From assembly GCA_963717525.1 (NCBI GenBank), contig OY970343.1:1280001-1344000 (forward strand): 64,000 bases of DNA, written 5' to 3'. A program made the position numbers and the translations under genes. The notes beneath the pieces are model-generated. The model was given only the letters and a program-made list of their open reading frames with translations. It was not told where the DNA came from and did not search any database. The stretch is from an uncultured Methanoregulaceae archaeon. Its GTDB lineage: Archaea > Halobacteriota > Methanomicrobia > Methanomicrobiales > Methanospirillaceae. Shown here piece after piece: positions 1,394 to 32,330 of the stretch (its first letter is position 1; the number at the start of each line of letters is the position of its first letter).

Positions 1394-1519
1394 GAGTATA
1401 ATCGACCGGCTTTGTAGTTTGGTTCGGATGTGTCAGAGAAAGTACCTTGGAAAAGATTGAGGGGGGATATCCTCCATTTTACATTCTGGAAGAGTTGGGC
1501 CCTTAAACGTGGTTTGTTT

Positions 1520-1960
1520 ATGATTTCCGTACTCTATGTCGATGACTGGTCGCCGTTGCTGCATATCATCTCCCGTTTTCTGATGGAGAAAGGGGATATT
1601 ATAGTCGAAACATCACTCTCACCCGAAGAGGCGTGCCGAAAAATGGACTTCTTCTCCTTTGATGTCATCATCACTGATTATAATTCCAAGGACTCGGCCG
1701 GTATCGGTCTTCTTCAACAAACCCGGCAGAAAGGAAAAATGACGCCCTTTGTTTTCTTTACCTTAGAGCAAAACCGTGTAATGGAACAAGAAGCCGCACG
1801 GTATGGCCATGTGGCATTTGTGCGAAAAATACAGAACTCCGATTCGAGCTTTGACGAGCTTGAGAAAAAAATCCGGACAACAATTCCGGCACCTCATTCA
1901 GGAAATATAATTCCAAAAAAGGATCCGATCTATCCGATAAGTGGAGAACCATCATCATGA
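1520..1960 (+). CDS. Stand-alone response regulator receiver protein
   Basis: MISVLYVDD start at ATG 1520, DVIITDY, PFVFFT, FVRK. Confidence 0.8.
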   Translation: MISVLYVDDWSPLLHIISRFLMEKGDIIVETSLSPEEACRKMDFFSFDVIITDYNSKDSAGIGLLQQTRQKGKMTPFVFFTLEQNRVMEQEAARYGHVAFVRKIQNSDSSFDELEKKIRTTIPAPHSGNIIPKKDPIYPISGEPSS

Positions 1961-3621
1961 TACCTGTTCTTTATGTTGATGATGAATCAGCCCTGCTCGA
2001 CATAACGAAGCATTATCTGGAGCGCAGCGGAGAGTTCAGAGTAGATACTGCGACCTCTGCCAACGAGGCGATCAGCAAACTCATGGAGCAGGAGCGGTTG
2101 TACGAAGCAATCATCTCCGATTTCCAGATGCCGGAGATGAATGGCATCGAATTTTTAAAGAAAATCAGGACTACCGGAAATACCATTCCTTTTATTATTT
2201 TTACGGGAAAAGGGCGGGAAGAAGTTGTCATCCAGGCATTAAATGAAGGCGCCGACTCGTACATCCAGAAAGGCGGTGAGCCCAAGGCGCAATTTGCCGA
2301 ACTCGCACACAAGATCCGGCAGTCCGTCCAACAGAGAAGGGCGGAAATCAATATCAGGGATCTTGAACGGAGAGAGGGGGACATCATCAACTTCCTGCCG
2401 GATGCAACCTTTGCTATCGACACCCATGGGATTGTGATCGCATGGAACCATGCGATGGTGAAGATGACTGGTATCAGGGCAGCTGAAATTCTTGGGAAAG
2501 GCGACTATGAATATGCACTGCCCTTTTACCATGAGCGCCGTCCCATCCTGATCGATCTCGTACTCCGTGATGACCCTGCAACCACTGTAAAATATGGGAA
2601 TGTCACTAGGAACACAGGGAACCTCATTGCAGAGGTCACTATCCCCCACTTCAATAACGGGGAGGGGGCCTTGCTCTGGTTCGTTGCCTCCCCCCTCTAT
2701 GATACCCGGGGCACCACCGTCGGTGCAATTGAATCGATCCGGGATATCACCGAACGTAAAAAGGCGGAAGAATCCTTAAAAAGTAGCGAGGAACGGTACC
2801 GCACGCTCCTGCAGCGTTCGTTCGATGCGGTCGTGGTTCACCGTAACGGCATCATTACCCTCGCAAACCAGATTGCTGCCACTCTTCTGGGTGTATCGTC
2901 ACCATCAGAACTTGTCGGAAAAAAAGTTCTTGATTTTGTCCATCCCGCATACCGGAATACCGTCACGGAGCGGATAGGAGCGATGACCACCGGTAACGTA
3001 ATGACCGCAGTTGATACTATCGAAGAGAAATTTCTGCGGACCGACGGAGGGGTTATTGATGTCGAAGTAGTCGCCACAGGTTTTTTTGATAAAGGCCAAC
3101 CCTCGATCCTAGTGGTATTCCGGGATATCACCCGGCGCAAGGGATTGATGGAAGCGCTTAAGGAGAGCGAGGAGCGATACAGGAACGTTGTCGAGACCCA
3201 GACCGAGTTTATCTGTCGGTTCAGGCCAGACGGCACCCATATCTTTGTCAACGAGGCATACTGTCGGTATTTCAATAAGACACGGGATGAGATGATCGGG
3301 AATAAGTTCATCCCCAGGATCCCGGAGGAAGAAAAAGCCGGCGTAAAGGAACATTTTGTCTCCCTGACCCGGGAAAATCCTGTTTTGGCGATTGATCACC
3401 GCATCATCATGCCCGACGGCAAGATGCGATGGCAGCGGTGGAACGATCGGGCAATTTTCGATGATAAAGGGATCCTTGTTGAATATCAGTCAGTTGGCCG
3501 GGATATAACCGATGTCAAGGAAGCGGAAGAGGCACTGAGGTTCAAGCATGAGGAACTGATCAGTGCTTATGAGAAATTGACCGCAATGGAAAAAGAACTG
3601 GCTCTACAGAGCCCAAAATGA
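1957..3621 (+). CDS. Receiver + three PAS/PAC sensory protein, no kinase domain
   Basis: VLYVDDE..IISDFQMPEMNGIEFL; PAC ends RDITERK, RDITRRK, RDITDVK. Confidence 0.9.
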   Translation: MIPVLYVDDESALLDITKHYLERSGEFRVDTATSANEAISKLMEQERLYEAIISDFQMPEMNGIEFLKKIRTTGNTIPFIIFTGKGREEVVIQALNEGADSYIQKGGEPKAQFAELAHKIRQSVQQRRAEINIRDLERREGDIINFLPDATFAIDTHGIVIAWNHAMVKMTGIRAAEILGKGDYEYALPFYHERRPILIDLVLRDDPATTVKYGNVTRNTGNLIAEVTIPHFNNGEGALLWFVASPLYDTRGTTVGAIESIRDITERKKAEESLKSSEERYRTLLQRSFDAVVVHRNGIITLANQIAATLLGVSSPSELVGKKVLDFVHPAYRNTVTERIGAMTTGNVMTAVDTIEEKFLRTDGGVIDVEVVATGFFDKGQPSILVVFRDITRRKGLMEALKESEERYRNVVETQTEFICRFRPDGTHIFVNEAYCRYFNKTRDEMIGNKFIPRIPEEEKAGVKEHFVSLTRENPVLAIDHRIIMPDGKMRWQRWNDRAIFDDKGILVEYQSVGRDITDVKEAEEALRFKHEELISAYEKLTAMEKELALQSPK

Positions 3622-3647
3622 AACAACCGGAATAACCAGGTGGTGCG

Positions 3648-4022
3648 ATGAAACAAGAAAACGTTCAATATTTTACAGAAAAGGAAGAAGAGATCGTCAA
3701 TCTCTTGATCGAGATTGGAACGAAAAAAAATGTTGCAAAAGTGCTGGTATTTTTAGATAATATTCCCGAAGCGACATCCCACGCGATAGAGCGCGGGACT
3801 AACCTGCGCCAGCCCGAAGTAAATATAACCATGCATTACCTGATGGATAGGGGCTGGATCAGGAGCCGTGAGAGCAAGGCCGAAAGCCAGGGACGTCCGG
3901 TCAAGATCTACGAATTGGCTAAGCCCGTCGCAGAGATTATGGACAGTTTCGAGAAAGAGAGTGAGGACAGAGCCAATAATCAGCTCAAACTCATAAAGAA
4001 ATTACGGGATTATATTTCCTGA
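3648..4022 (+). CDS. Winged-helix transcriptional regulator (archaeal ArsR-like family)
   Basis: IERGTNLRQPEV, L..RGWI, GRPVKIYELAKP. Confidence 0.8.
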   Translation: MKQENVQYFTEKEEEIVNLLIEIGTKKNVAKVLVFLDNIPEATSHAIERGTNLRQPEVNITMHYLMDRGWIRSRESKAESQGRPVKIYELAKPVAEIMDSFEKESEDRANNQLKLIKKLRDYIS

Positions 4023-4132
4023 TAACATTACACCTGTGATATATTGAACCACCTTGTGACCATATATCGATAAAATCAATTCGTCAGCGAGTCTATCTCA
4101 TTTTACAAAATGTGGGGGTTCCAAAATCTGGT

Positions 4133-5463
4133 ATGTCGCTGCTTTCTCATCAAAAGCAAACCATTTATGATATCGGCATTATCGCAAGTGTCATCGTTGC
4201 CATTATAATCACTTATGTATGTCTCAATAATGGGATCTATGAGGTATTTCCGTACCTTTATCTCATCCCGGTGGTGCTTATTGCATATACCCGTCCGAAA
4301 TTTGGGATTTATGGGACAGTTCTCGTTGGTTGGTTATATTTCGTGCTTGTCTATTTCTGGGAAATCCCGGATTCGCAACTTTTCACTCTGGCCACAATAA
4401 GGTTCTATGTCTTTGTTTCCATCGGTATCCTCATATCAGTCTTCTCCCAGGAATATCGGAAAGGGGAGCAGAAAAACCATACGTTATATAATCATTCTCA
4501 GGCAGGAATTTTCAGCATTAATAAAAAAACCCTTGAAATAACGGATGCCAACCGGAAGTTCGCTCAGATAATCCATTACCAATGTAGCGATCTGATAAAA
4601 AAGAATCTCTCAGATATTATCACCGGTTCCGAAGAGCGGGAATCATTTCTCGCCAACTTACACGATTTTTGCAGGGTAGAGGATATTGAGGTATTCCTGT
4701 CCGCACGGGACGGACCCGGGCGATGGGTACTTATCTCGGCTTCTCATACCGACGAAGAAAATATTGTCTGCACAGTAGTCGATATCACAGATCAGAAAGA
4801 GTCACAACGTGCTCTTATGCTGGCAAACCGGAAACTCCTTTTGCTCTCCAGCATTACACGACATGATATCCTCAACAAGTCATCCGGTATCTATGGATAT
4901 CTTGGTATCCTTCGTATGAAATTCCCGGACCCTGCATTGGCAGATTATATCAGTAAACTGGAAGATACAACAAAGAAGATTCAAGCCCTGATCGCTGAAA
5001 CCCAAGTCTACCAGGATCTGGAACCCAAGAACCCAAGTGGCAGGAACTGGACAAAATCGCAAGGGACGTACAGGTCCCGGCAACTATCGCACTCATCGTA
5101 GATCTTCAGGGAGTCGAAGTATTCGCAGATCCGATGCTCAAAAAAGTGTTCTCAAATTTCCTTGATAATTCACTTCGGCACGGAGAGCGGGTGACCGAAA
5201 TTCGGGTGTCGTCCCAAAAGTCTGGCGAAGATCTGATTGTGGTATGGGAGGACAACGGGGTTGGCATCGCTGCTGAAGAAAAGGAACGAATCTTCGAGTG
5301 GGGATTCGGGAAAAATACCGGACTCGGGATGTTCCTTATCCGGGAGATCCTTTCCCTGACGAGCATCACCATTAAAGAAACCGGGCAGCCAGGTAAAGGA
5401 GTGCAGTTTGAGATAACGGTGCCGGAAGGGCAGTACCGGTTTACAAGGGTGGATCAGAAATAA
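4133..5463 (+). CDS. Membrane PAS histidine kinase, frameshifted at ~5020
   Basis: N-terminal TM helices, PAS, H-box SITRHDILN; HATPase (NFLDNSLRHG, DNGVGI, GFGKNTGLG) is in the next frame; adding one G at 5020-5021 restores YQDLGTQEPKWQ. Confidence 0.85.
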
Positions 5464-5496
5464 AAAACCATCAGGATATTAAGGATAAATAATAAA

Positions 5497-5513
5497 AGTT
5501 CTGTTGAGTTATC
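5497..5513. repeat. Degenerate half-copy of the 80-bp element arm
   Basis: AGTTCTGTTGAGTTATC matches GGTTCTGTCGAGTTATC (6640-6656) at 15/17; sits at the left edge of the AT-rich island. Confidence 0.5.
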
Positions 5514-5640
5514 ATGATTTTTAATTGTTATTAAAAAAAACAATGAATAATTTTTGAGCACTAATATCTCGTTTTATGTAAATAAAAAGAAAAGAGGGCA
5601 ATACCATAATTTCTTTCACTTAATTACGATTAAAGACGGG

Positions 5641-6550
5641 CTATCTGCCACTACTTTTATTTATAATCTGTTCTAGCGTAACAATTGTAATTTTTAATGC
5701 ATATTCAGCATCATCTTTTGCAGGAATACTACCACCATGAGCACCTTTGTTGCTTAAATAAATCCATACACTTTTTATGGATTTTCTATCCGTGTCCGAT
5801 GGAAAAATACTATTCAATGCGTTTTTCCAATCTTCATTTTTACCTACTTGGATACATAATGCCTCAATAGCTGCCCTACATGAAATTACACAATGGCGTA
5901 AGGCATCTGGTCCTCCATTGTGAAGGCGATCAATTGCACCCAGGACAGATTCTTGAACATTCGGGTAGTTTTTCAATTTCTCAGCAACGGATAGGCGATT
6001 ATATATCTCAACTGATTGGGCTGATCGGACTAACTTTGGGCTCGATATACGAAGTAAAGATTTTTCTTTTTTTTCATGCTCCATTATTGTCTTTCGTAAT
6101 GCAAGCTCGAGCGGAATGTCTCTATTCCAGATTAAGTCTTGATTCTGGAGTTCCTGAAGGACTAAAATTAATGTGTTGTAGAAAGAAACTGCACTCTTGA
6201 GTCGTCGCACTCGATTGAATTTTTTTAAAAGATTCGAAGAGTTTCCACCATACGATAGCGTACGGATTTTTATTGACATGTCTTTGACCGAAGATTCACA
6301 TTTTCCGAGGAGTTGATCACCAACGTGGCGCAAAGAGGAATTAACGTTATTTTTTGAGGTATTTAGAATCGATCTTCCTATTTTTCTTGTCAATCCTTTC
6401 GCTCCATATGGGACAACTGTCTGAACCAGCAATTCACCAAATATCGGTGCCTGATGATTATTGATTCCATTTGAGAGCGCTTGTTCTGCTTGGTACTCTG
6501 TATTGGACCGCTTCTTGAATAAGTTGAGAAATTGTATCTTTCGGTGTCAT
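5641..6550 (-). CDS. Hypothetical defence-like protein with C-terminal HEPN/Abi_C-like helical domain; probable ATG at 6550 with a frameshift near 6495
   Basis: C-terminus AIDRL..DALRHCVISCRAAIEALC..YLSNKGAHGG..DDAEYAL; ORF frame stays open upstream to ~6546, one base off ATG 6550. Confidence 0.5.
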
Positions 6551-6639
6551 ATTTCTTCCATGAGAAATAACAATTCCTATCGAACTAATCTACAATGATG
6601 ATAGGATTAGATACCATAGAGTGTCCCTTTACAATATAT

Positions 6640-6719
6640 GGTTCTGTCGAGTTATCGGCAGTTATTAAAGTTTGGTACTCCTGTTTGGGAAACCAAGCTG
6701 CCGACAACTTGACAGAACC
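6640..6719. repeat. 80-bp palindromic element, copy 1 (MITE-like, IS6-type ends)
   Basis: GGTTCTGTCGAGTTATCGGCAG ... CTGCCGACAACTTGACAGAACC, 22-bp arms with 2 mismatches. Confidence 0.85.
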
Positions 6720-6762
6720 TTAAATAACAATTATTAAGTAAACCATTGAAGATTACTCACAT

Positions 6763-9700
6763 ATGAAAACATTAAATGATATAATTGATCTCTTAAAAAC
6801 ACAGAATGTAACTCTTTTTTTAGGTGCTGGAAATTCATTGCGTTTAGGAGGACCATCTGGTAAGGACTTATTAGAGAGAGTGATTCAAAAATTTTCAGAT
6901 TTAGACTTCAGAAATCGATCTAATTTTTTTGATGTCTGTGAGGATATTATCGGATCTGATTCACACTCTCGCGTTGAATTAGAAGATTACATTAAAAAAC
7001 AGTTTATTGGATTAAAGCCTGACGAGTCTATAATTAAATTAATATCTCTCCCTTGGAAGTGCATATTTACTACAAATTATGATTTGGTAATAGAGAGAAT
7101 TCCTGAAAATCGATTGAAAACTCGATCAATTCGTCAAGTTACTGAAGATAATCCACAAATATACCCTGATAGAATAGATATTTTGTATTATATCAAAATA
7201 TTTGGATCTATAGATTGTAAATATAATGAAGAAGGATTTCCTGTTTTATCGAATATTGATAAATCCATCTCCTTTTTAAGGCGAAATGCCTATTATTCAC
7301 ACTTATCCGAATGTCTAAAAAAAGGACCGGTACTCTTCATAGGATATTCCTTTGAAGATGATATTGTTTTTACAATAATGGAAGAACTACTATCTTCAAG
7401 AGGATCGGGATCTTTTCAACATTCGTATGCTTTAACGCCAAACGATATAGATGAGCGTAAAATTAAAAAATTTTCAAGATACGATATTCATCATATCAAA
7501 GGAACGGTTGAAAATTTTGTTTTTCAAGCAGATCTAGGATTAAAAAATTACGATTTTGAATCCCATTTATCTGAAAAAACAGTTCATATTCGTGGGATTC
7601 CTATTGACATTCCTTTAAACATTGAACGACCCTCTCAAGAATATTTAGAATTTTTAAATCTTACATCAATGACATCGAAATATAGCAATATTCGAAAATT
7701 TTTTAGCGGTGAAGACGACTCATACTATCCTTTTGAAAAAGGTTGGGATTTTAAAAGAGAAATCTATGAAATTGATGAACAAACACAATCAGGACTCTGT
7801 CAACTTTACAATGTTCAGACAGGATTTAAAAAGTTTATTTTTAATAATATCGACAGCCCTTCACAAGATGATAATTTGTATGCCATACTGACCGGACCCG
7901 CCGGATGCGGGAAAACAATTATCCTGAAACGATTGGCATACGATTGGTATTCTTACGGAAATCCAGTAATTTTTTTGAAACCTCAAGCATCTCATATAGA
8001 TCGCAAACAATTAGAGGCATTCATTGAATACATTGAATCTGCTTATAAAAAAGTTTCCGGATATTCGAAACCACGACCTCGAACGTTATTGATTTGTGAT
8101 AATGCTTCATCTATATATCGAGATATAATTTCATTATTTTCAGAGATTTCATCAAGAGGAAAAGCCATCAATCTGATCATTTCTGATAGAGAAAATTTAT
8201 TCGCAGGACGAAATTTTTCAGGCTACCCAGTTTATAGAATTCCGGAATCAATCACATCATCAGAATTAACGACTTTTAGAGATTATCTGTATTCAAACAA
8301 ATTAATTGAATCCGACGCCGAATTATTCAACATATACGATAATCCAAAGATAAATCAATCATTTTTTGCTTTAATGTATACTTTAATTGATGAATCAAAA
8401 AGACCGCTAAATACAATTATTCATGATCAATATCAAAAATTAAAAGATTGGCAAAAGGCGGCTTATGAATACACCTGTTTATTCAATAAGTACAGATTGA
8501 ATCTAAATGAAGAAATTCTTGTTAATGCAACAATAAATGAATTTAAAAAATTTCGAGATGAGGTAAAAAAGGGATCTTTAAAATCCATCTTGTTCCCCGT
8601 TGATGAACAATATGAGGAAGTAGATTATAGGGTTCATCATCCGATTATTGCTGAAAGAACTGTGGATTTTGAGTTCGGTGAACCTGGAATTATCGCTCAA
8701 AAAATTACTGAACTAATCAGTAATGTAAATCCGCAGTATCCTCATCAGGTTAATCAAATAGAGAATCTTCTGATTTTTAAAATCGGACCCAACTCTAATG
8801 AGAAGGAAATCCCCATTTCTCTTAAGCGAGACATTTTTGAGGTCGCTAATCAGAGATTAAAATCGAGATCTATCTGTCACCATTATGCACTGCTTGAAAT
8901 TGAGGAGCCAAATGCAAATTATAAACATGCCGAACAACTGTTGAAGGAAGCTCTAGCAATAAATCAATCCAGAGAGAGAGATGAATTAATCTTCACCTCT
9001 TTTGGTAAACTATATGCAAAAATGGGTTATGTTTTTGCAGACAAAGGAAAAAATTCGGATGCCGAAAAATATTACAAAATGGCAGAATTAAATTTTGAAA
9101 GAGGGCGTTCGAAGCATTTTAAAAATCAATATTCATATCATGGTCATATTAGTCTTTTAATCAGAAAAGCAATAAAATCGAGCAATTCACTCGAAAAAAT
9201 TACACATCTTTCAAGGGCATTACAATTATGTGAAGAAGCAATAAATGTTTTAGATCAATCTGAACATATTCGGTTTTTGGAAGAAAAAGGCCGAATCTTT
9301 TCATTATCTAATGATATCGAAAAATTTGATGAAATTGTTGATTTATTGGCAAAAGAATACAAAAGCTCCGCAGGTTACAAACTTAAAGCCAATATTTTAT
9401 ACAGAAAACTTGCAGATTTAGAACGAACTCCCGAAACTTTATCTAAGTATAATGAATTAGACCAGTTAATTGAAACCGGATTGACAATTGAGGCAACCGA
9501 TCCGGAACTATTACGATTAAAGGCCCGTGTTTCGTTAATATTGCACAAGGATGATAAGACGTACTTATTGAAAATATTGAAAACTTGGTATCAACACGCA
9601 CAAGATAATGATCTGTATGTTTTATTCAGATATGGCGTTACACTTTTCGAAAAAGATAGTTATGAAAAGTCAAAACATATTTTTGAGGAACTGGATCAAT

Positions 9701-9966
9701 TATCTGAAGGGTATAAAACTAAAAGCACCCTTAACAAGGTCTATTATATAATGGAAAATGGAACAAATAAAGAGTATTTGGGGAAAATTACTCAAGTATC
9801 CTCAAATGGTAAAACAATTAAAATTAAATGTTCATCACTTCCCAATTTAAAATATGATATTGGTGCATTGTACCCGGAATTTGAACCTATAGTTAATGAT
9901 TATGTAAAATTTAATATCGCATTCAATTTCAGAGGGATTATAGGAAAAAATGTAAAGAAAAACTAA
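6763..9966 (+). CDS. SIR2-like domain + STAND P-loop NTPase + TPR + C-terminal OB/cold-shock-like domain (Avs5-like antiviral protein)
   Basis: LFLGAGNS, FTTNYD, KIFGS, LFIGYSFED; Walker A GPAGCGKT, Walker B LLICDN; HPIIAE; TPR-like helices; C-terminal VKFNIAFNFRG. Confidence 0.8.
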   Translation: MKTLNDIIDLLKTQNVTLFLGAGNSLRLGGPSGKDLLERVIQKFSDLDFRNRSNFFDVCEDIIGSDSHSRVELEDYIKKQFIGLKPDESIIKLISLPWKCIFTTNYDLVIERIPENRLKTRSIRQVTEDNPQIYPDRIDILYYIKIFGSIDCKYNEEGFPVLSNIDKSISFLRRNAYYSHLSECLKKGPVLFIGYSFEDDIVFTIMEELLSSRGSGSFQHSYALTPNDIDERKIKKFSRYDIHHIKGTVENFVFQADLGLKNYDFESHLSEKTVHIRGIPIDIPLNIERPSQEYLEFLNLTSMTSKYSNIRKFFSGEDDSYYPFEKGWDFKREIYEIDEQTQSGLCQLYNVQTGFKKFIFNNIDSPSQDDNLYAILTGPAGCGKTIILKRLAYDWYSYGNPVIFLKPQASHIDRKQLEAFIEYIESAYKKVSGYSKPRPRTLLICDNASSIYRDIISLFSEISSRGKAINLIISDRENLFAGRNFSGYPVYRIPESITSSELTTFRDYLYSNKLIESDAELFNIYDNPKINQSFFALMYTLIDESKRPLNTIIHDQYQKLKDWQKAAYEYTCLFNKYRLNLNEEILVNATINEFKKFRDEVKKGSLKSILFPVDEQYEEVDYRVHHPIIAERTVDFEFGEPGIIAQKITELISNVNPQYPHQVNQIENLLIFKIGPNSNEKEIPISLKRDIFEVANQRLKSRSICHHYALLEIEEPNANYKHAEQLLKEALAINQSRERDELIFTSFGKLYAKMGYVFADKGKNSDAEKYYKMAELNFERGRSKHFKNQYSYHGHISLLIRKAIKSSNSLEKITHLSRALQLCEEAINVLDQSEHIRFLEEKGRIFSLSNDIEKFDEIVDLLAKEYKSSAGYKLKANILYRKLADLERTPETLSKYNELDQLIETGLTIEATDPELLRLKARVSLILHKDDKTYLLKILKTWYQHAQDNDLYVLFRYGVTLFEKDSYEKSKHIFEELDQLSEGYKTKSTLNKVYYIMENGTNKEYLGKITQVSSNGKTIKIKCSSLPNLKYDIGALYPEFEPIVNDYVKFNIAFNFRGIIGKNVKKN

Positions 9967-10021
9967 CAATTCATTTTATTCTTATCCGTTTCATGTCACC
10001 CCATATAATACAAATATTTAC

Positions 10022-10101
10022 GGTTCTGTCAAGTTGTCGGCAGTTTCTGAAATTTGATACTTCGAAGAAAAGTCACTAGCTGCCGAAGACTTGACAGAAC
10101 C
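10022..10101. repeat. 80-bp palindromic element, copy 2
   Basis: GGTTCTGTCAAGTTGTCGGCAG ... CTGCCGAAGACTTGACAGAACC; same length and orientation as copy 1. Confidence 0.85.
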
Positions 10102-10721
10102 CATTGTGCAGAGTGAGATCACTCTTAATGTAAAAATCTGGAATGCTGCTGGTGATTGTCAGAGAATGTATCGTGTTGAGTTTAAATTTTTAGCATATGC
10201 TTAATAGAATTTGCAATATAATACTGCGCGGCAAATATATTATCAAGTATGCACGGCAGTAAAAGAACGAGAGGCCAACGAATCAGAACCTCTGGACTGG
10301 TCCAGATCCCCAGTTTTTTCTGGCGGTTTTTTGGGAGCCGGAAATTCTTTAAAATTTTAAATTTTTGCGTTTTCTTATAATCCCTATTAAAGGAACGACG
10401 TAAAAATCAAATTTAAAAGGATTCCGGCGACTAATGCGGCAGGAAAAATCCAACCCGGGAAACCGGACATCGATGACCGTAAACGCCTTAGGATCCCGGA
10501 AAAATAGATTACTTCCCGCTGTTCCGGAACACCACGATCGCCCCGATGACCGGCACCGCATCGGGCCCGGACCGGGGCGTATTGGCAGGCAGCGGAATTT
10601 TCTTCGCGCTCCAGTATGGGGCCAGAGGAGCCGGGATCTCTCCATTTTAGAGAGAAAGGATTACAAAAATCCAGTGTTCAATCCCGAAAGTATAACCTAT
10701 GTGGGTGATAATCCCTACATC

Positions 10722-11858
10722 ATGAAAGGGTCATATCGGATCGGGCGGATATTCGGCATTCCTATTCTCATCCATTACACGTTCCTGATCGTGATCCCAC
10801 TTTTAGCGTGGATCATAGGGAGCCAGATCTCGCTGACGACAGATACTATCAGAGGGATCTTCCAGGTCCCGATAGATACATCCCTGATCACAGCGGGATT
10901 CATGCCTTGGATCCTCGGAACCGTCGTCGCACTCGGTCTCTTTTTGGGCGTCCTTGTCCACGAAATAGCCCACTGCATCATCGCCCGGCAAAATGGCGTG
11001 AAGATCCAGAGCATCACCCTGCTGATCTTCGGTGGCGTCTCCCAGATGGAAGACGTGGGGGTACCGGATCCGAAAGTCGAGCTCCCGATGGCACTTGCCG
11101 GGCCGCTCACCAGCCTTCTCGTCGGTATAGTTTGCGGGGGTATTGTCTTCTTTATACCCGAAATGACCACAGACACCGCGACTGCCGGCGTCCTCATTCT
11201 TATCTTCGGATATCTCTCATTCCTTAACGTCATCCTCTTCGCATTTAACCTGATTCCTGCCTTCCCCATGGATGGCGGCAGGGTGCTCCGGGCGGAGCTG
11301 GCGAAACGGATGCCACTCCATAAGGCGACCCGGATCGCCGCCAACGTTGGCAAGGCTTTTGCGATTATTTTTGGCATCGTCGGCCTTATATTCTTCAACC
11401 CGTTCCTGATCCTGATTGCCCTTTTTGTCTACATCGGGGCTAGCTCGGAATCTACCATGGACCAGTTCACCTACCTGCTGCATGATGTAACGGTGGGTAC
11501 CACGATGAGTTCTCCGGTGACGGTCGTGGCGCCGACCCTGACGCTTGCAAAGGTGATCGAGATGATGCTGATCAGCAAGCACCTTGGATTCCCGGTCGTA
11601 GAACAGGATAAACTTGTAGGCATGATTACGCTTGTGGATGTGAACCGTATCCCGCAAATCGATCGCGAGACGATGCAGGTCCGCAACATCATGACTCACG
11701 ATCCAATCACCCTCCCGCCATCTGCACCGGTCATGGACGCCTTCAGAATCATGTCGGCCCGAAACATTGGGAGGATTCCGATAGTTCAAGAGGGACGAGT
11801 CGTCGGGATTGTGACCCGAACCGATATCCTGAAAGTGACAGAGCTAAAAAAGATCTAA
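10722..11858 (+). CDS. Site-2 protease (M50) with two CBS domains
   Basis: HEIAH, ALAGP, NLIPAFPMDGGR, C-terminal CBS pair; start MKGSYRIG. Confidence 0.93.
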   Translation: MKGSYRIGRIFGIPILIHYTFLIVIPLLAWIIGSQISLTTDTIRGIFQVPIDTSLITAGFMPWILGTVVALGLFLGVLVHEIAHCIIARQNGVKIQSITLLIFGGVSQMEDVGVPDPKVELPMALAGPLTSLLVGIVCGGIVFFIPEMTTDTATAGVLILIFGYLSFLNVILFAFNLIPAFPMDGGRVLRAELAKRMPLHKATRIAANVGKAFAIIFGIVGLIFFNPFLILIALFVYIGASSESTMDQFTYLLHDVTVGTTMSSPVTVVAPTLTLAKVIEMMLISKHLGFPVVEQDKLVGMITLVDVNRIPQIDRETMQVRNIMTHDPITLPPSAPVMDAFRIMSARNIGRIPIVQEGRVVGIVTRTDILKVTELKKI

Positions 11859-11872
11859 CAAGGGGAAGGCTC

Positions 11873-12349
11873 TTACGAACCGACCAGGATTGGAGTCTGT
11901 ACCTCAGACGCCATTTTCTGCATGGAATGAGGTACCGCAGGGGCGTGATGCGAAGATTCTTTTGGCGGTTCCCATACGGCGTGTTCGGAATGTCCGGTTA
12001 AGATCTGATTCTGCTGTGTAAGTGTTGCAAGGATCTGCCGGTTGACTTCGAGGCTCTCATTGGCGAGTGCGGAGATCTCGCCCAAGATCTTTGTCTGTTC
12101 GGCGATTAAAGCCGCGATATCTTGCGCGGATTTTGTCCCGGCTTCTTTTGTAGTAATGGACAGAGGCCGTTTTTTTGCAAATTCACTCCTGCGTTTCCAG
12201 ATTTTTGAGATACTATCAAGACCTTTTTTGGTATCAGGGAACACCTTGAAGTATCGATCATAAAATTCATGACTATCCTTGCACTGGAGGACGAGGTCGA
12301 TTTCCGCTTCCTCGACCACCTGGTATTTGCGGACGGGGATTTTCTCCAT
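11873..12349 (-). CDS. Hypothetical protein with coiled coil
   Basis: 158-aa ORF with protein-like composition; no motif recognised. Confidence 0.65.
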   Translation of the reverse strand: MEKIPVRKYQVVEEAEIDLVLQCKDSHEFYDRYFKVFPDTKKGLDSISKIWKRRSEFAKKRPLSITTKEAGTKSAQDIAALIAEQTKILGEISALANESLEVNRQILATLTQQNQILTGHSEHAVWEPPKESSHHAPAVPHSMQKMASEVQTPILVGS

Positions 12350-12460
12350 AGCACCGGATCACTCACTGAGGGAGATAAAGGGGCGGCCATGAGGGGGGTG
12401 AAAGTGAAGAGGAGTCAGTAATACGAAGACCTCCCTCTGAAATGTCGAGTTTATTCAACT

Positions 12461-12880
12461 TTATACCCGCAATTGAGACTGTACCGATTGTGAATCCGTT
12501 TTCAGCGGTTCACAAGCATGCGCCATCTTCTGAACAATCAACGCAAGCTGGGATTGTGCTTCTTTGTCATGTGGATTTAACTTCAGGACTTTATCGAGTG
12601 CGCGGAGTGCCTCGGTATCTTTCTTGAGATGCACAAAAGCCAGACTCTTATTGAACAACGCGTTTGTGAATTGTGGATCAATGTCAGTTGCTTGCCCGAA
12701 GGCATTCACTGCATCAATGTATTTTCCTTGTCTGAATTGGATAATGCCGATGTTATTCCAGATGGTGGCGTTATTGTTATCGGTTCGAATAAGTGCCTGA
12801 AATAAGACGAGTGCCTCGTCCAATTGACCCTGTTCGGCGAGTTCGGTTGCCTCATTGAACAGATCGAACGCGTCGGGCAT
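12461..12880 (-). CDS. TPR repeat protein
   Basis: IWNNIGIIQFRQGKY..A..AF..A..DP, ALFNKSLAF..L..ALDKVLKLNP; start taken as MPDAF. Confidence 0.85.
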   Translation of the reverse strand: MPDAFDLFNEATELAEQGQLDEALVLFQALIRTDNNNATIWNNIGIIQFRQGKYIDAVNAFGQATDIDPQFTNALFNKSLAFVHLKKDTEALRALDKVLKLNPHDKEAQSQLALIVQKMAHACEPLKTDSQSVQSQLRV

Positions 12881-13261
12881 AATTATCGTGTCGTAGTGGT
12901 GAAGGGATGAAGGTTGTGGATACGGGGTGGATACCGAAAAAGTCTGGTACGCCCGGAACTGCTCCAGGAGATTGCCTCCCGACTTTCGATGGTAGGTACT
13001 CACACAGGCGTTCGTTCCAGTGGAAATAAAGGGGTATAAAAATATTTTCAATTTGTCGGATTGGCTTAAAAATCCTCAAAAGGATATGAAATCTAAAATG
13101 CGGTGCGATAAAAGGAAATTTTGATGAGTTCTCTTTATCTAAAACACTTATACCACTATAATGAAGATTGGTGCGACGAAGTCCATGAGAAACACTGCGC
13201 TCACTACCTAATTAACACCTCGAACACCTTGCTATATCAACAAAACCAAAAATCCCCCTTT

Positions 13262-13815
13262 TTACAGGATGTTTTCGAGCTTCTGTTCGAGGACGTCAAG
13301 TCCCTTCTTGACGGCTTCAAGATTTTTGCCACCGGTGAGAATAGCTTTCCTGAAGAGAAGATTAACACAACGATCTTGGGATCTTTGATCCGGTATACAA
13401 GCCCGGGGAACTGTTCGGGTTCGTACTCGATATTTTCGACATTGAATGTGACGACTACCTTGTTGAGATTGATGGATTTACCGAGATCGTAGGAACAGAC
13501 CATATTGGTGATCGCAACTTTGGGCACTTTGAGGGTTTCAAAACCCGCCTCATTTAACGATTTGATGAGGGCAGCAAGTCCGTCTGTAAGCGCCTTATTG
13601 CTACGAAGGCCGGTCAGCACTATCTTGCCCGTCGAAAAAATCAGGGATGTAATCCTAGGTTCATCGATACGATATACTGCGCCGGGAAACCGTTTCTTAT
13701 TGAGTTCGCAGTTCTTGACCTTATTTGACAACTCAACAAGATCTATCGAATCGGCGATGACGCCCGACGCAACGATATTCTCAATCTTCAAGGATTCATA
13801 TCTTTTATCAGCCAT
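13262..13815 (-). CDS. tbp: TATA-box binding protein, frameshifted at ~13343
   Basis: IENIVASG, FPGAVYRI, LIFSTGKIVLTG, EYEPEQFPGLVYR; adding one base restores GKLILTGGKNLEAVKKGL..ENIL* with stop at 13262. Confidence 0.93.
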
Positions 13816-13933
13816 CTCTTCCTTCTATGACGTTCTTTGAAGCATAAGACTAATGGACAATCTTTATGACACTGAAAAAACCCGGCAAAGATCCACAAGA
13901 AATTATTTCAGGGCCCTTGGAGGATTAAGGATT

Positions 13934-14962
13934 ATGGAAAACAAGGCCCCCGTAAGATTGTCCCACCCCGGTGATCGCGAAATCACGTGAACGATCACGC
14001 TTGAAGAGCACTATGCCAGCCCGGCATTCCTGGACGGCCCGGGACGAAACCTCAGGGAACAGCCCGGGATGACCGGGCGTTTCGGGTATGGGAACCCTGC
14101 CGAAGATTTGTTGGATCTCGGTGAGAAGAGAATCGCTGAAATGGATGCCGCAGGTATCGACGTGCAGGTATTGTCGCTGACCGACCCCTCCGTGCAGCAA
14201 CTTGATGCGGACGCGGCCGTAGATCTGGCCCGTGAAGCGAACGACTATCTTGCGGACGCGGTCAGGCTATATCCGCAGCGGTTCGCGGGATTTGCCACGC
14301 TCCCAACTGCTGCTCCCGACATTGCTGCCGATGAGCTGGAGCGCATGGTCAAAGAACATGGCTTCAAAGGAGGATGGATCAATGGACACACCCGGGGCTG
14401 CTACCTCGATGACAAATTCTTCTGGCCTATCTTAGAGCGTGCTGATGCGCTCAAAGTTCCCCTCTGCATTCATCCGACACCCCCACCGGCGCCGGTGATT
14501 GAAACGTACTATTCGGGCTTCTCACCAGAGGTAACATTCGGCTTATCCCGGCACGGGTGGGGCTGGCATATCGAGACTGCGGTCCATGTCCTCCGTCTCA
14601 TCCTCGGTGGAGCGTTCGACCGGTTCCCGGATCTCCAGATTGTTATCGGCCACTTGGGAGAGGCTCTTCCCTTTATGATGCCCCGGCTCGACAAAGGTCT
14701 GTCCACGAACGTAACGAAGCTTGAGCATCCTGTGGCAGACTACCTCCGGGAGAATGTGTACTATTCGTTCAGTGGTTTCAACTTTACCCAGACCTTCCTC
14801 AACCTGTATCTTCAGGTCGGGGCCGACCGGATCATGTTCTCTGCCGACTACCCGTATAGTTCCATGGCGGAAGCACGCACCTTCCTCGAAAACCTCCCGG
14901 TGAGCCGTGCGGATAAGAACAGGATAGCGCACGGAAACGCGGAACGCCTCCTGCGGCTCTGA
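13934..14962 (+). pseudogene. Amidohydrolase_2 family (aromatic acid decarboxylase-like) with in-frame TGA at 13988
   Basis: ITLEEHY motif lies upstream of the annotated ORF start and directly after an in-frame TGA; IHPT, GHLGE, FSADYPY. Confidence 0.75.
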
Positions 14963-15072
14963 TACCTTCCCGAAGAGTACGTAAAAAGAGGTGGTTTTCC
15001 TTTTGGGAAAGTCCGGGAGGAACAGGCATTCCGCCAATGATGCACTTCCTGCCGGCAAAACCGGAATCTTTT

Positions 15073-15486
15073 TTAGCGCTTCCAGATTTCCAGGCTCGAC
15101 ATATTCTTCCCGTGATACGCAATCTCGCCTGCGGTAAACACGATCACGACAAAATCCGGATTCTCCGGCGTTTTGAAGTGCTGTTCGAGCATCGGGTTCC
15201 AGTACTTCTTTTTCGTTGCAATATCTTCGTGGACTTTGCCCTTTGCCTTGATCTCGACATACGGGTCGGAATATTCCTTTCCCGACCAGATGGCAAGAGC
15301 CGTGTCAGGGTTTTTCTTCAGCTGTTCGACCTTTTTCGAGGATTTCATCGTCGCCCCGACGAGGGTCATGTCAGGTAAGCCGGCAAGCACCATGAACCGG
15401 ACTGCCGGGAGCTTACCGTCCAGTGTTGCAACCGCTGCAACATGAGGACCATTGATAACTTCCATGATCTGCTCTTTGAGTGGCAT
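15073..15486 (-). CDS. Pyridoxamine 5'-phosphate oxidase-like / general stress protein 26 family
   Basis: VATLDGKLPAVRFM, T.KSSKKVEQLKKNP, YVEIKAKG, KYWNP. Confidence 0.85.
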   Translation of the reverse strand: MPLKEQIMEVINGPHVAAVATLDGKLPAVRFMVLAGLPDMTLVGATMKSSKKVEQLKKNPDTALAIWSGKEYSDPYVEIKAKGKVHEDIATKKKYWNPMLEQHFKTPENPDFVVIVFTAGEIAYHGKNMSSLEIWKR

Positions 15487-15720
15487 GGAAGCCATTCTCA
15501 TCCATGATCGTATAAATGTACGGATTGGGGAAATTGAGATACGGTCTATCATGGCCAGTCTCATACCAAACCGGTTGCGATATGATTAGGCACTGACGCG
15601 TCTGCGTGACGTTTGAATAGTCAACGTTAATGGGGTCACGCCATTATCGTTTTTCCATAAGCCCATTAACGCAACAGCAACCGCAGATGCAACAGAATCA
15701 TCGATACTTATATATCAAAT

Positions 15721-21926: not shown

Positions 21927-22235
21927 GATTATGATTGCCGTTCTCGATGTTAATGATAAATTGATTTCTGTGGCGTTAACAGGACTTAATGAATACTTAA
22001 TATCGTCGTAACTCATCAATGTTGACAATATAATTGTCTCGAAGTCGCACCAGAACCTGTCACATGATTTCGGGATGGGATGGTGCTGTTGCGTTTAAGG
22101 TTGGTGACAAATAGTTTACCTCGTTAAAATATTCAAATCAACCGCCAGTGCAACAGCACCCATGTAACGAACCAAAACTGTATATATCCTCTTGGGCGAT
22201 TACCAACTATCGAATGTCGATGGAGTGAATGAGAT

Positions 22236-25081: not shown

Positions 25082-25259
25082 GGGTACCACCTCAGGTTCT
25101 GTTGCGTTGGCGATTGATCGGTATTATGCCGAGGTGAAAAACCGATTGCAGACCCGGAACCCTGATTTCCCCCAATCGTGGAATGGCTGGCCAACATGTG
25201 GTATGCACTATCGTACCTATACAAACCTATAATTCCCCTTTCTCCTCTTAAACTCCCGT

Positions 25260-26023: not shown

Positions 26024-26223
26024 TTCTTCATTATGGCAATATTCTATCGATTCCTCCCCGGTTTTCTCACTACGATTTTCCGGAACCGAAAAACCTTGAA
26101 TTTTGTATTTTACATCGTTCCTTTAATAGCAATTAAATGAAACAGAAAAATTTTTTCGCTTTATATCAATAAAATATGGATTTTATTAATGCCGAATGTC
26201 GAATCTTCAGTGTTTTTAGGAGT

Positions 26224-31870: not shown

Positions 31871-32330
31871 TTCTGCCGGCTGAAAAAAATAAGGCTCTGG
31901 TTTTTTAGCGTTAGCGAAAACAAAAAATACCATGATCGCGCCAGAATCGCTATCCGGCGGGGTGGTAAAAAGTCACGACAACGCGGAAGGCCTAAGCCTG
32001 TGAACGCGAATGATCCCCTGCGATATCGCACCGACGATCCATCCGTTCGATCCGGTTTCCCGGTTTCGTTTCCGGCCAATCTGGAACCCCTCTGTTTTCT
32101 AGGCTTCCTTTAGGATTCCCGTTTATTTTCCCGTTTATTTCGTTTTATACGAGTAAAAGGAAAGGAAAAAGTTGCAACATTTTCTAAGTGAAAAACCGGA
32201 AAATCCGGATCCGGGATCCGGACCGGACCCGGATCGCCGGACCGCCGGATCACAAAAAATATTGCCGCACACAACGAAAATAAAATCAGCAGAAAAATTA
32301 AAAGGACTATCAGGAGGGGAATGAGAAATT

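Follow-up and report, generated by a model that had tools for sequence, protein, structure and literature searches.

A SIR2-STAND gene between two miniature elements with IS6-like ends: apparent derivatives of promoter-homing cargo transposons as probable splice points in a methanogen genus

Results

Two miniature elements bracket a SIR2-STAND gene

The window analysed here comprises 64,000 nucleotides from an uncultured Methanoregulaceae archaeon (assembly GCA_963717525.1, contig OY970343.1, positions 1,280,001 to 1,344,000; the genome, 87% complete, is called G000 below), and holds a gene for a putative antiviral protein between two palindromic elements of 80 bp. These elements, which we call miniatures, appear to be non-coding members of a family of cargo transposons with IS6-like ends. 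The three features are, in window coordinates:

6640..6719, + strand: miniature E1, 80 bp, TCAAG arm type, a single predicted transposase site at either end
6763..9966, + strand: SIR2-STAND(-TPR) gene, 1067 aa, 31% GC, Avs-like
10022..10101, + strand: miniature E2, 80 bp, TCAAG arm type

E1 ends 43 bp before the ATG of the gene and E2 starts 55 bp after its stop codon. The two elements are alike at 57 of 80 positions overall and at 17 of 36 in their cores, their inner 22-bp arms are perfect reverse complements, and target duplications are absent, including outside the outer ends of the pair; on coordinates, lengths, spacing, arms, diverged cores and lack of duplication, an earlier note made from the sequence alone was exact. 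A special meaning of the identical inner arms was rejected, this arm being merely a common one of its sub-family (identical in 6 of 240 arms). The nearest relatives of E1 stand at 79% in the genome and 81% elsewhere, those of E2 at 88% in the genome and 95% in another (G086), and the first 20 bases of E2 are those of both ends of a full transposon (L098, in G071; 20/20). The earlier assignment of the ends to the IS6 type is supported. E1 and E2 belong to different sub-lineages, so the pair was not made by one event. The suggestion of a transposon composed of two MITEs (miniature transposable elements with inverted repeats) fares badly, with copies only 57/80 alike and no duplication outside them.

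One contig from the sequencing runs, at 65x, runs unbroken across positions 1500-10653. Two joints present in contigs (10055-6682 and 10101-11666) were rejected as circles, their sequence suggesting further copies of the element or a locus paralogous to this one. A synteny search for an empty site of the region returned none, and the flanking genes match relatives one by one, as in a mosaic. Rfam gave no match to the element, and a genome-wide PF13610 search placed no such gene inside the window, which was not scanned as a whole for transposases.

The 1067-aa protein matches Pfam SIR2_2 and nSTAND_NTPase5 above cut-off, PADLOC reports a ThsA-type SIR2 match, and its Atlas neighbours are bacterial SIR2-STAND-TPR proteins. 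It has the SIR2, STAND and TPR architecture of Avs-type proteins, and resembles the Avs5-type SIR2-STAND proteins in its N-terminal SIR2 domain, STAND NTPase and TPR-like region, as far as the available parts of the sources describe them (PMC11897194, PMC12931631, PMC12680541); Avs9 identity was ruled out, there being no AlbA_2 match. The 31% GC of the gene compares with roughly 50% in the surrounding region. No homologue was found in 200 other genomes of the family, the search for homologues with genomic context gave a sole match of 27%, bacterial and without an element, and no close structure was found. Judged from its sequence, the gene is likely foreign and likely antiviral.

The miniatures form a family of fixed length

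Elements were sought by a strict palindrome search (78-81 bp), with a profile, and with a model across genomes, the genus set comprising 108 genomes and the order set 141. The strict search found 22 palindromes in G000 against 0 in each of three shuffles, so the elements are not a product of chance; the profile gave 41 matches at E < 0.1, about 35 of them full length, including a type of 90-92 bp; and the model placed elements in 51 of the 108 genus genomes and, order-wide, in 11 of 141, all except one in this family. Copies beyond the pair, on which the note's proposal depended, are therefore present both in the genome (about 35 full) and across the genus.

The miniatures are short (77-81 bp, plus the type of about 92 bp) and non-coding, with terminal inverted repeats. 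Four arm types occur, both arms being of one type in 96 of the 103 elements of 77-81 bp, and all four share the same length and an A/T-tract core, so that the fixed length noticed at the locus (78-81 bp over the four types) extends to the family. An origin as hybrids by crossover at the centre was rejected: the halves correlate (rho 0.45-0.8), with no clear recombinant. The near-identical copies that a MITE burst leaves within a genome are not seen; the nearest copy in the genome stands at 64-89% (27 elements), none is closer than 89%, and most elements of G000 have a closer relative in another genome. They cluster in accessory islands: 31 of 35 lie no more than 5 kb from another element, where random placement would give 4.9.

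In viral contigs four pattern matches were found, none of which scores as an element. One such contig (L080:5001-5079) holds a different palindrome with the same tips, scoring nil with the element profile, and contigs C4 and C5 of G108 carry a separate palindrome family of 73-74 bp with similar tips and four near-identical copies.

Full-size relatives are cargo transposons that land upstream of TATA boxes

We delimited 24 parent transposons at 21 of 22 loci examined. They measure 2.6-11 kb, have two tandem sites per end and carry cargo genes, and show the GG tip, the CTGT motif and an 8-bp target duplication, which is perfect in 21 of the 24. G000 itself has two PF13610 genes, each within an element of 4-6 kb whose tips are the same and whose 8-bp duplication is perfect. 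The transposase (378-409 aa) combines a SWIM domain, a zinc ribbon and a DDE domain; it scores above the PF13610 cut-off, its best match NF033587 remains below cut-off (113.6 and 123.6 against 125), and its database relatives are labelled Methanoregula sp. Parent end types correspond to miniature arm types, type by type, and the likeness among the transposases of the four types is no more than about 37-40%. Of the 108 genus genomes, 23 have the transposase; elements are present in 21 of these 23 against 30 of the 85 without it, a count over related and hence not independent genomes. Matching ends and co-occurrence support the earlier idea of a cognate transposase acting in trans.

The cargo is rich in defence genes, with PADLOC matches in 19 of 86 open reading frames (ORFs) spread over 10 of the 24 transposons; restriction-modification, dGTPase, SoFic and other defence genes are among them. 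At 20 of the 21 parent loci a TATA-like octamer starts 14 bases out from the tip on one side, that side having been picked by A/T content; the insertion point thus lies 13 bp upstream of TATA boxes, mostly those of heat-shock genes. The targets include what we take, from inspection of the sequence, to be the genes of the thermosome, grpE, hsp20 and an ArsR-type regulator. The cdc48 promoter is also among them, and target promoters often carry a motif resembling the HSR1 operator, given as CTAAC-N5-GTTAG in the accessible part of PMC9133787. Outside the genus, element and 8-bp duplication were found at 10 of 15 loci, with the same TATA offset in 10 of 10, and parent elements stack on one and the same 8-mer.

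Miniatures mark one-sided joints

Target duplications are absent from the miniatures (0/119), the distribution of matches being that of random pairing, and the scattered single copies with their own duplications that would have pointed to ordinary MITEs were not seen. Among 36 miniatures with a sibling of at least 90% at another site, none has a duplication, the best match covering 4 of 8 bases; age is therefore not the explanation. No empty allele emerged from 114 in-silico empty-site queries. A close homologue was available for 56 of 281 element flanks. In 13 cases the similarity sets in right at the tip of the element, and the partner DNA there does not itself score as an element; all 13 partners continue into sequence unlike the other flank of the element, that is, they are one-sided joints.

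Rearrangements with borders at elements are found at several loci. L062 and L063 share the same element and a constant right flank, with two different left neighbours; the genes of C1:1692-1705 kb in G000 are reordered at elements in L070; L037, L044 and L060 show core-gene blocks whose order changes at elements; L039 is a tandem of the form element-tetR-element-tetR; and a gene lying exactly between two elements has a 96% copy elsewhere, the similarity starting and stopping at the element tips.

Among 289 element ends, 17 have a TATA core at exactly the parents' offset, where other offsets give 2.5. One miniature is placed at a cdc48 promoter, on the very base that full transposons use. Both observations link the miniatures to the enzyme of their parents. 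At the clpB promoter (L009:16961-17946; G000 C1:520.5-521.4 kb) a full-type end is followed by a PDC-S31-like gene, and a 79-mer cuts both off; this gene has a 62% homologue between elements in L063; the arrangement is a possible route by which defence cargo could be left between ends. In G110 (L034:7746-8193) two elements lie directly upstream of a DEDDh gene and an apparent type I-E cas operon.

Genes of every kind lie next to miniatures

ORFs were called with a simple longest-ORF script, and neighbour lists include some false ones. A single ORF is found in 24 of the 51 inter-element segments of up to 4.5 kb; another 21 contain two to five, and the remaining 6 have none. Stop codons are nearer to elements than background (median 52 against 109 bp) and start codons are not (115 against 105 bp), a pattern that would follow if the surviving joints were those that leave genes and promoters whole; 9 of 284 element ends seem to cut a gene, some of these being start-call artefacts. 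The polarity of elements to genes is random (16:17, 7:9, 6:5 and 2:1), and neighbouring elements are direct in 6 cases, inverted in 9 (same type) and of unlike types in 19, so that the shared orientation of E1 and E2 does not hold as a rule. The notion of gene bracketing or capture survives in part, with single-ORF segments (24/51) and shuffling at element borders in its favour, but not in the form of an integron- or pdif-like cassette, which the absence of polarity and the random orientation contradict. Nor did a defence bias appear: in a scan of 150 of 177 element neighbours, made without a random-gene background, PADLOC matched 13, of which we judge about 5 to be real defence genes. The miniatures are not a defence-cassette system, genes of every kind probably being shuffled, and the SIR2-STAND gene is likely a passenger between two independently arrived copies and not their purpose.

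A second, dif-like site family and other features of the window

The bracketed gene also lies between two sites of a separate family, with an 11-6-11 layout:

5566..5593, + strand: dif-like 11-6-11 site, class B spacer
5641..6432, - strand: 263-aa low-GC ORF, outside the element pair and inside the dif-like module, no family match
10370..10397, + strand: dif-like 11-6-11 site, class A spacer, arms extended on both sides
26116-26143 and 32137-32164: further dif-like sites

The segment between the sites at 5566 and 10370 (4.8 kb, 33% GC) holds the 263-aa ORF, E1, the SIR2-STAND gene and E2; for the 263-aa ORF a weak lead points to AbiJ-like proteins (score 0.88, a lead only). The genome has about 30 such sites with two spacer classes (46 strand matches above 16 bits against 0 in a shuffle), clustered in miniature-bearing islands, with 16 of the 30 within 5 kb of elements; under a strict pattern they occur in 11 of the 108 genus genomes. 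Inverted class B sites enclose three other low-GC segments, one of them with a TIR-STAND gene and no miniature. Among the modules that the sites delimit are low-GC ones of defence-like content (TIR-STAND, DUF4062) and a thiC module with a 97% duplicate, which has one class A and one class B site at its borders. Tyrosine integrases adjoin class A sites, and the genome has 9 PF00589 matches. Regions of G000 with such sites include C1:121-152 kb and 1105-1156 kb, and a segment with an integrase and a small regulator, duplicated at 99% (C1:152325-154726 and 1271502-1273907), begins at a class A site. From its sequence the family looks like an archaeal module system in the style of pdif; one literature search turned up no description of such a system.

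Other features of the window are:

10272..10290, - strand: lone degenerate half-end of the same IS6-like family, read from sequence
22082..22160, + strand: third full element, 79 bp, TTGCR arm type
25095..25142, - strand: truncated element at the edge of a 1-kb segment repeated elsewhere in the genome at 97%

The stretch 10434-15600 is a mosaic whose segments recur in other parts of the genome at about 91-93% (an M50 peptidase end, TPR and TBP paralogues, an amidohydrolase). The 3' end of the TBP paralogue at 13237-13815 looks frameshifted; paired with the transposase it scored 0.01, which is evidence neither way.

Discussion

The miniatures appear, from ends, spread and sequence type, to be MITE-like, non-coding members of an IS6-like (SWIM/zinc-ribbon/DDE) family of promoter-homing cargo transposons. 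In duplications and copy burst they differ from typical MITEs, and in orientation from attC, pdif and IS26 composites, yet they appear to work like IS26 joints. We consider it probable, with real room for doubt, that they serve as splice points. In this reading one end of a miniature would be linked to new DNA by a transposase acting in trans, and the products would be deletions, duplications, inversions and captures instead of clean insertions. The reaction could be copy-in of the IS6 type or a pairing of ends from two copies, which give the same products and are indistinguishable here. A copy of 79 bp would be too short to resolve cointegrates into simple insertions, so clean insertions would not appear, and selection would keep the joints that spare genes, leaving the tight bracketing seen today. 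In IS6 elements, intramolecular copy-in yields deletions and inversions with removal of flanking repeats and, in IS26, gives arrays without target duplication, according to the part of PMC7986276 available to us.

Several observations weigh against the splice-point reading: (i) at least 3 of the 13 element-free partners hold an element remnant, and the 13 were drawn from 281 flanks; (ii) the TATA offset is found in only about 6% of ends, 2 of the 17 repeat one site, and the match at E1 itself is weak; (iii) a fresh inversion or cointegrate should leave a partner 8-mer, and a search for it by any other end in the genome gave 1 match where 1.2 were expected, with none for the single identical pair (G088); (iv) an excised circle, an empty site and a variant joint are all absent from the assembled contigs of 4 of 14 sequencing runs, from which rare forms drop out; (v) the transposase clade with ends corresponding to those of E1 and E2 is represented in G000 by relics only; (vi) neighbouring copies are neither identical nor directly oriented, unlike IS26 arrays; and (vii) the clean duplications of the parents point to simple insertion, which makes copy-in no more than a hypothesis for this transposon family. 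A further candidate, that the elements are excision footprints at inner repeats, was rejected: to the eye, their cores bear no likeness to the ends of the transposons, and a duplication is lacking.

We regard it as improbable that the miniatures are ordinary MITEs, which inserted singly and lost their duplications later by recombination or deletion in unstable islands, with bracketing as a by-product of survival between genes. They do share with MITEs their short, non-coding make-up, terminal repeats and cognate transposase, their islands are shared with another recombination system, and MITE duplications fade with age (PMC10969869, as excerpted); but duplications are missing from young copies too, at a distribution no different from random pairing, no empty allele was found, and full transposons of the same genomes retain theirs. 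An equally small chance attaches to a dedicated cassette system, in which the 79-mers would be maintained sites and the transposase would exchange gene-plus-site units in a targeted way, by analogy with IS26 translocatable units or integrons. The fixed length and shared core over four arm types, despite such dissimilar transposases, would fit this, as would arrays in which as many as 11 full elements share 20 kb (L022), the nearness of stop codons, and one defence gene family that adjoins elements in two genomes. Yet the elements have no polarity towards genes, types and orientations are mixed, element halves are co-inherited, most joints are to ordinary DNA and not to a second element, and targeted exchange by IS26 requires identity at the reacting end, as reported in the accessible part of PMC7885326.

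For the SIR2-STAND gene itself there is a serious possibility, somewhat short of even, that it came in a tyrosine-recombinase module between the dif-like sites at 5566 and 10370, the miniatures joining or trimming it afterwards, a course compatible with the splice-point reading of the miniatures. Both low-GC genes fall within the segment between those sites, low-GC segments elsewhere lie between inverted class B sites (the TIR-STAND one without any IS6-end element), and the thiC duplicate is likewise bounded by one site of each class; on the other hand, the spacers of the two sites are unlike, a second copy or empty site was not found, and no recombinase is singled out among the PF00589 matches.

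In integron attC arrays and pdif modules, short palindromes punctuate single accessory genes. The miniatures have neither fixed orientation nor polarity, and their ends are those of a DDE transposon; the pdif look-alike of this genome is the separate 28-bp site family flanking the region, not the 80-mers. In yeast, Ty3 integration is guided by TBP and TFIIIB. The parents share with Ty3, which uses Pol III promoters, a narrow fixed insertion window upstream of promoters, but are archaeal DNA transposons at protein-gene promoters, mostly heat-shock ones (bioRxiv 10.1101/2021.07.27.453949, seen in part). With the IS6/IS26 family they share GG..CTGT tips, a probably IS6-like DDE domain, the 8-bp duplication of autonomous elements and non-coding derivatives. 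The norm there is about 800 bp with a transposase of 220-250 aa and usually no passengers, whereas the parents here reach 2.6-11 kb with 378-409 aa and cargo, add the SWIM domain and zinc ribbon, have two tandem sites per end, and land at a fixed point upstream of TATA. Two MITEs are listed for the family, of 227 and 336 bp (PMC7986276, PMC6807381); the miniatures measure only 79 or 92 bp and never have a duplication. The element-gene-element order without duplications, the adjacent rearrangements and the one tandem element-gene repeat have their parallel, as far as excerpted, in the arrays, pseudo-compound transposons and translocatable units of IS26 (PMC7986276, PMC7885326), but the copies here are non-autonomous, diverged (57/80 at this locus) and in either orientation, with no circles in contigs. 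MITE-flanked composites (Acinetobacter integron MITEs, IR148 with mcr-5) likewise hold a gene between two MITEs mobilised in trans, with flanking copies that are identical, according to the available part of PMC10969869; here they are 57/80 alike with no outer duplication. The literature covered, which took in neither ISfinder nor the majority of subscription papers, held no description of the miniatures or of the TATA targeting.

A bolder and rather doubtful extension would be a two-tier archaeal gene capture. Its first tier would be the promoter-homing transposons, which import defence cargo; its second would be their 79-bp derivatives with one site each, maintained as capture sites of fixed geometry where the same transposase adds genes by splicing to shuffled arrays. 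Genes would then often arrive with an intact promoter, since the cut lies 13 bp upstream of the TATA box, and the whole would be an integron-like system run by a transposase and not by a tyrosine recombinase.

The splice-point reading suggests, in concrete and testable terms, what drives the mosaic make-up of accessory islands in a methanogen genus common in soils and wetlands. A single family of transposases would apparently act in two ways: full elements insert cleanly at targeted promoters, and 79-bp miniatures give rise to rearrangement or capture, the two groups being split absolutely in their target duplications (21/24 against 0/119). The 79-bp substrate may serve as a minimal probe of end pairing by IS6-like transposases, and a transposase that lands at a set distance from archaeal TATA boxes and leaves them intact would be a useful genetic tool.

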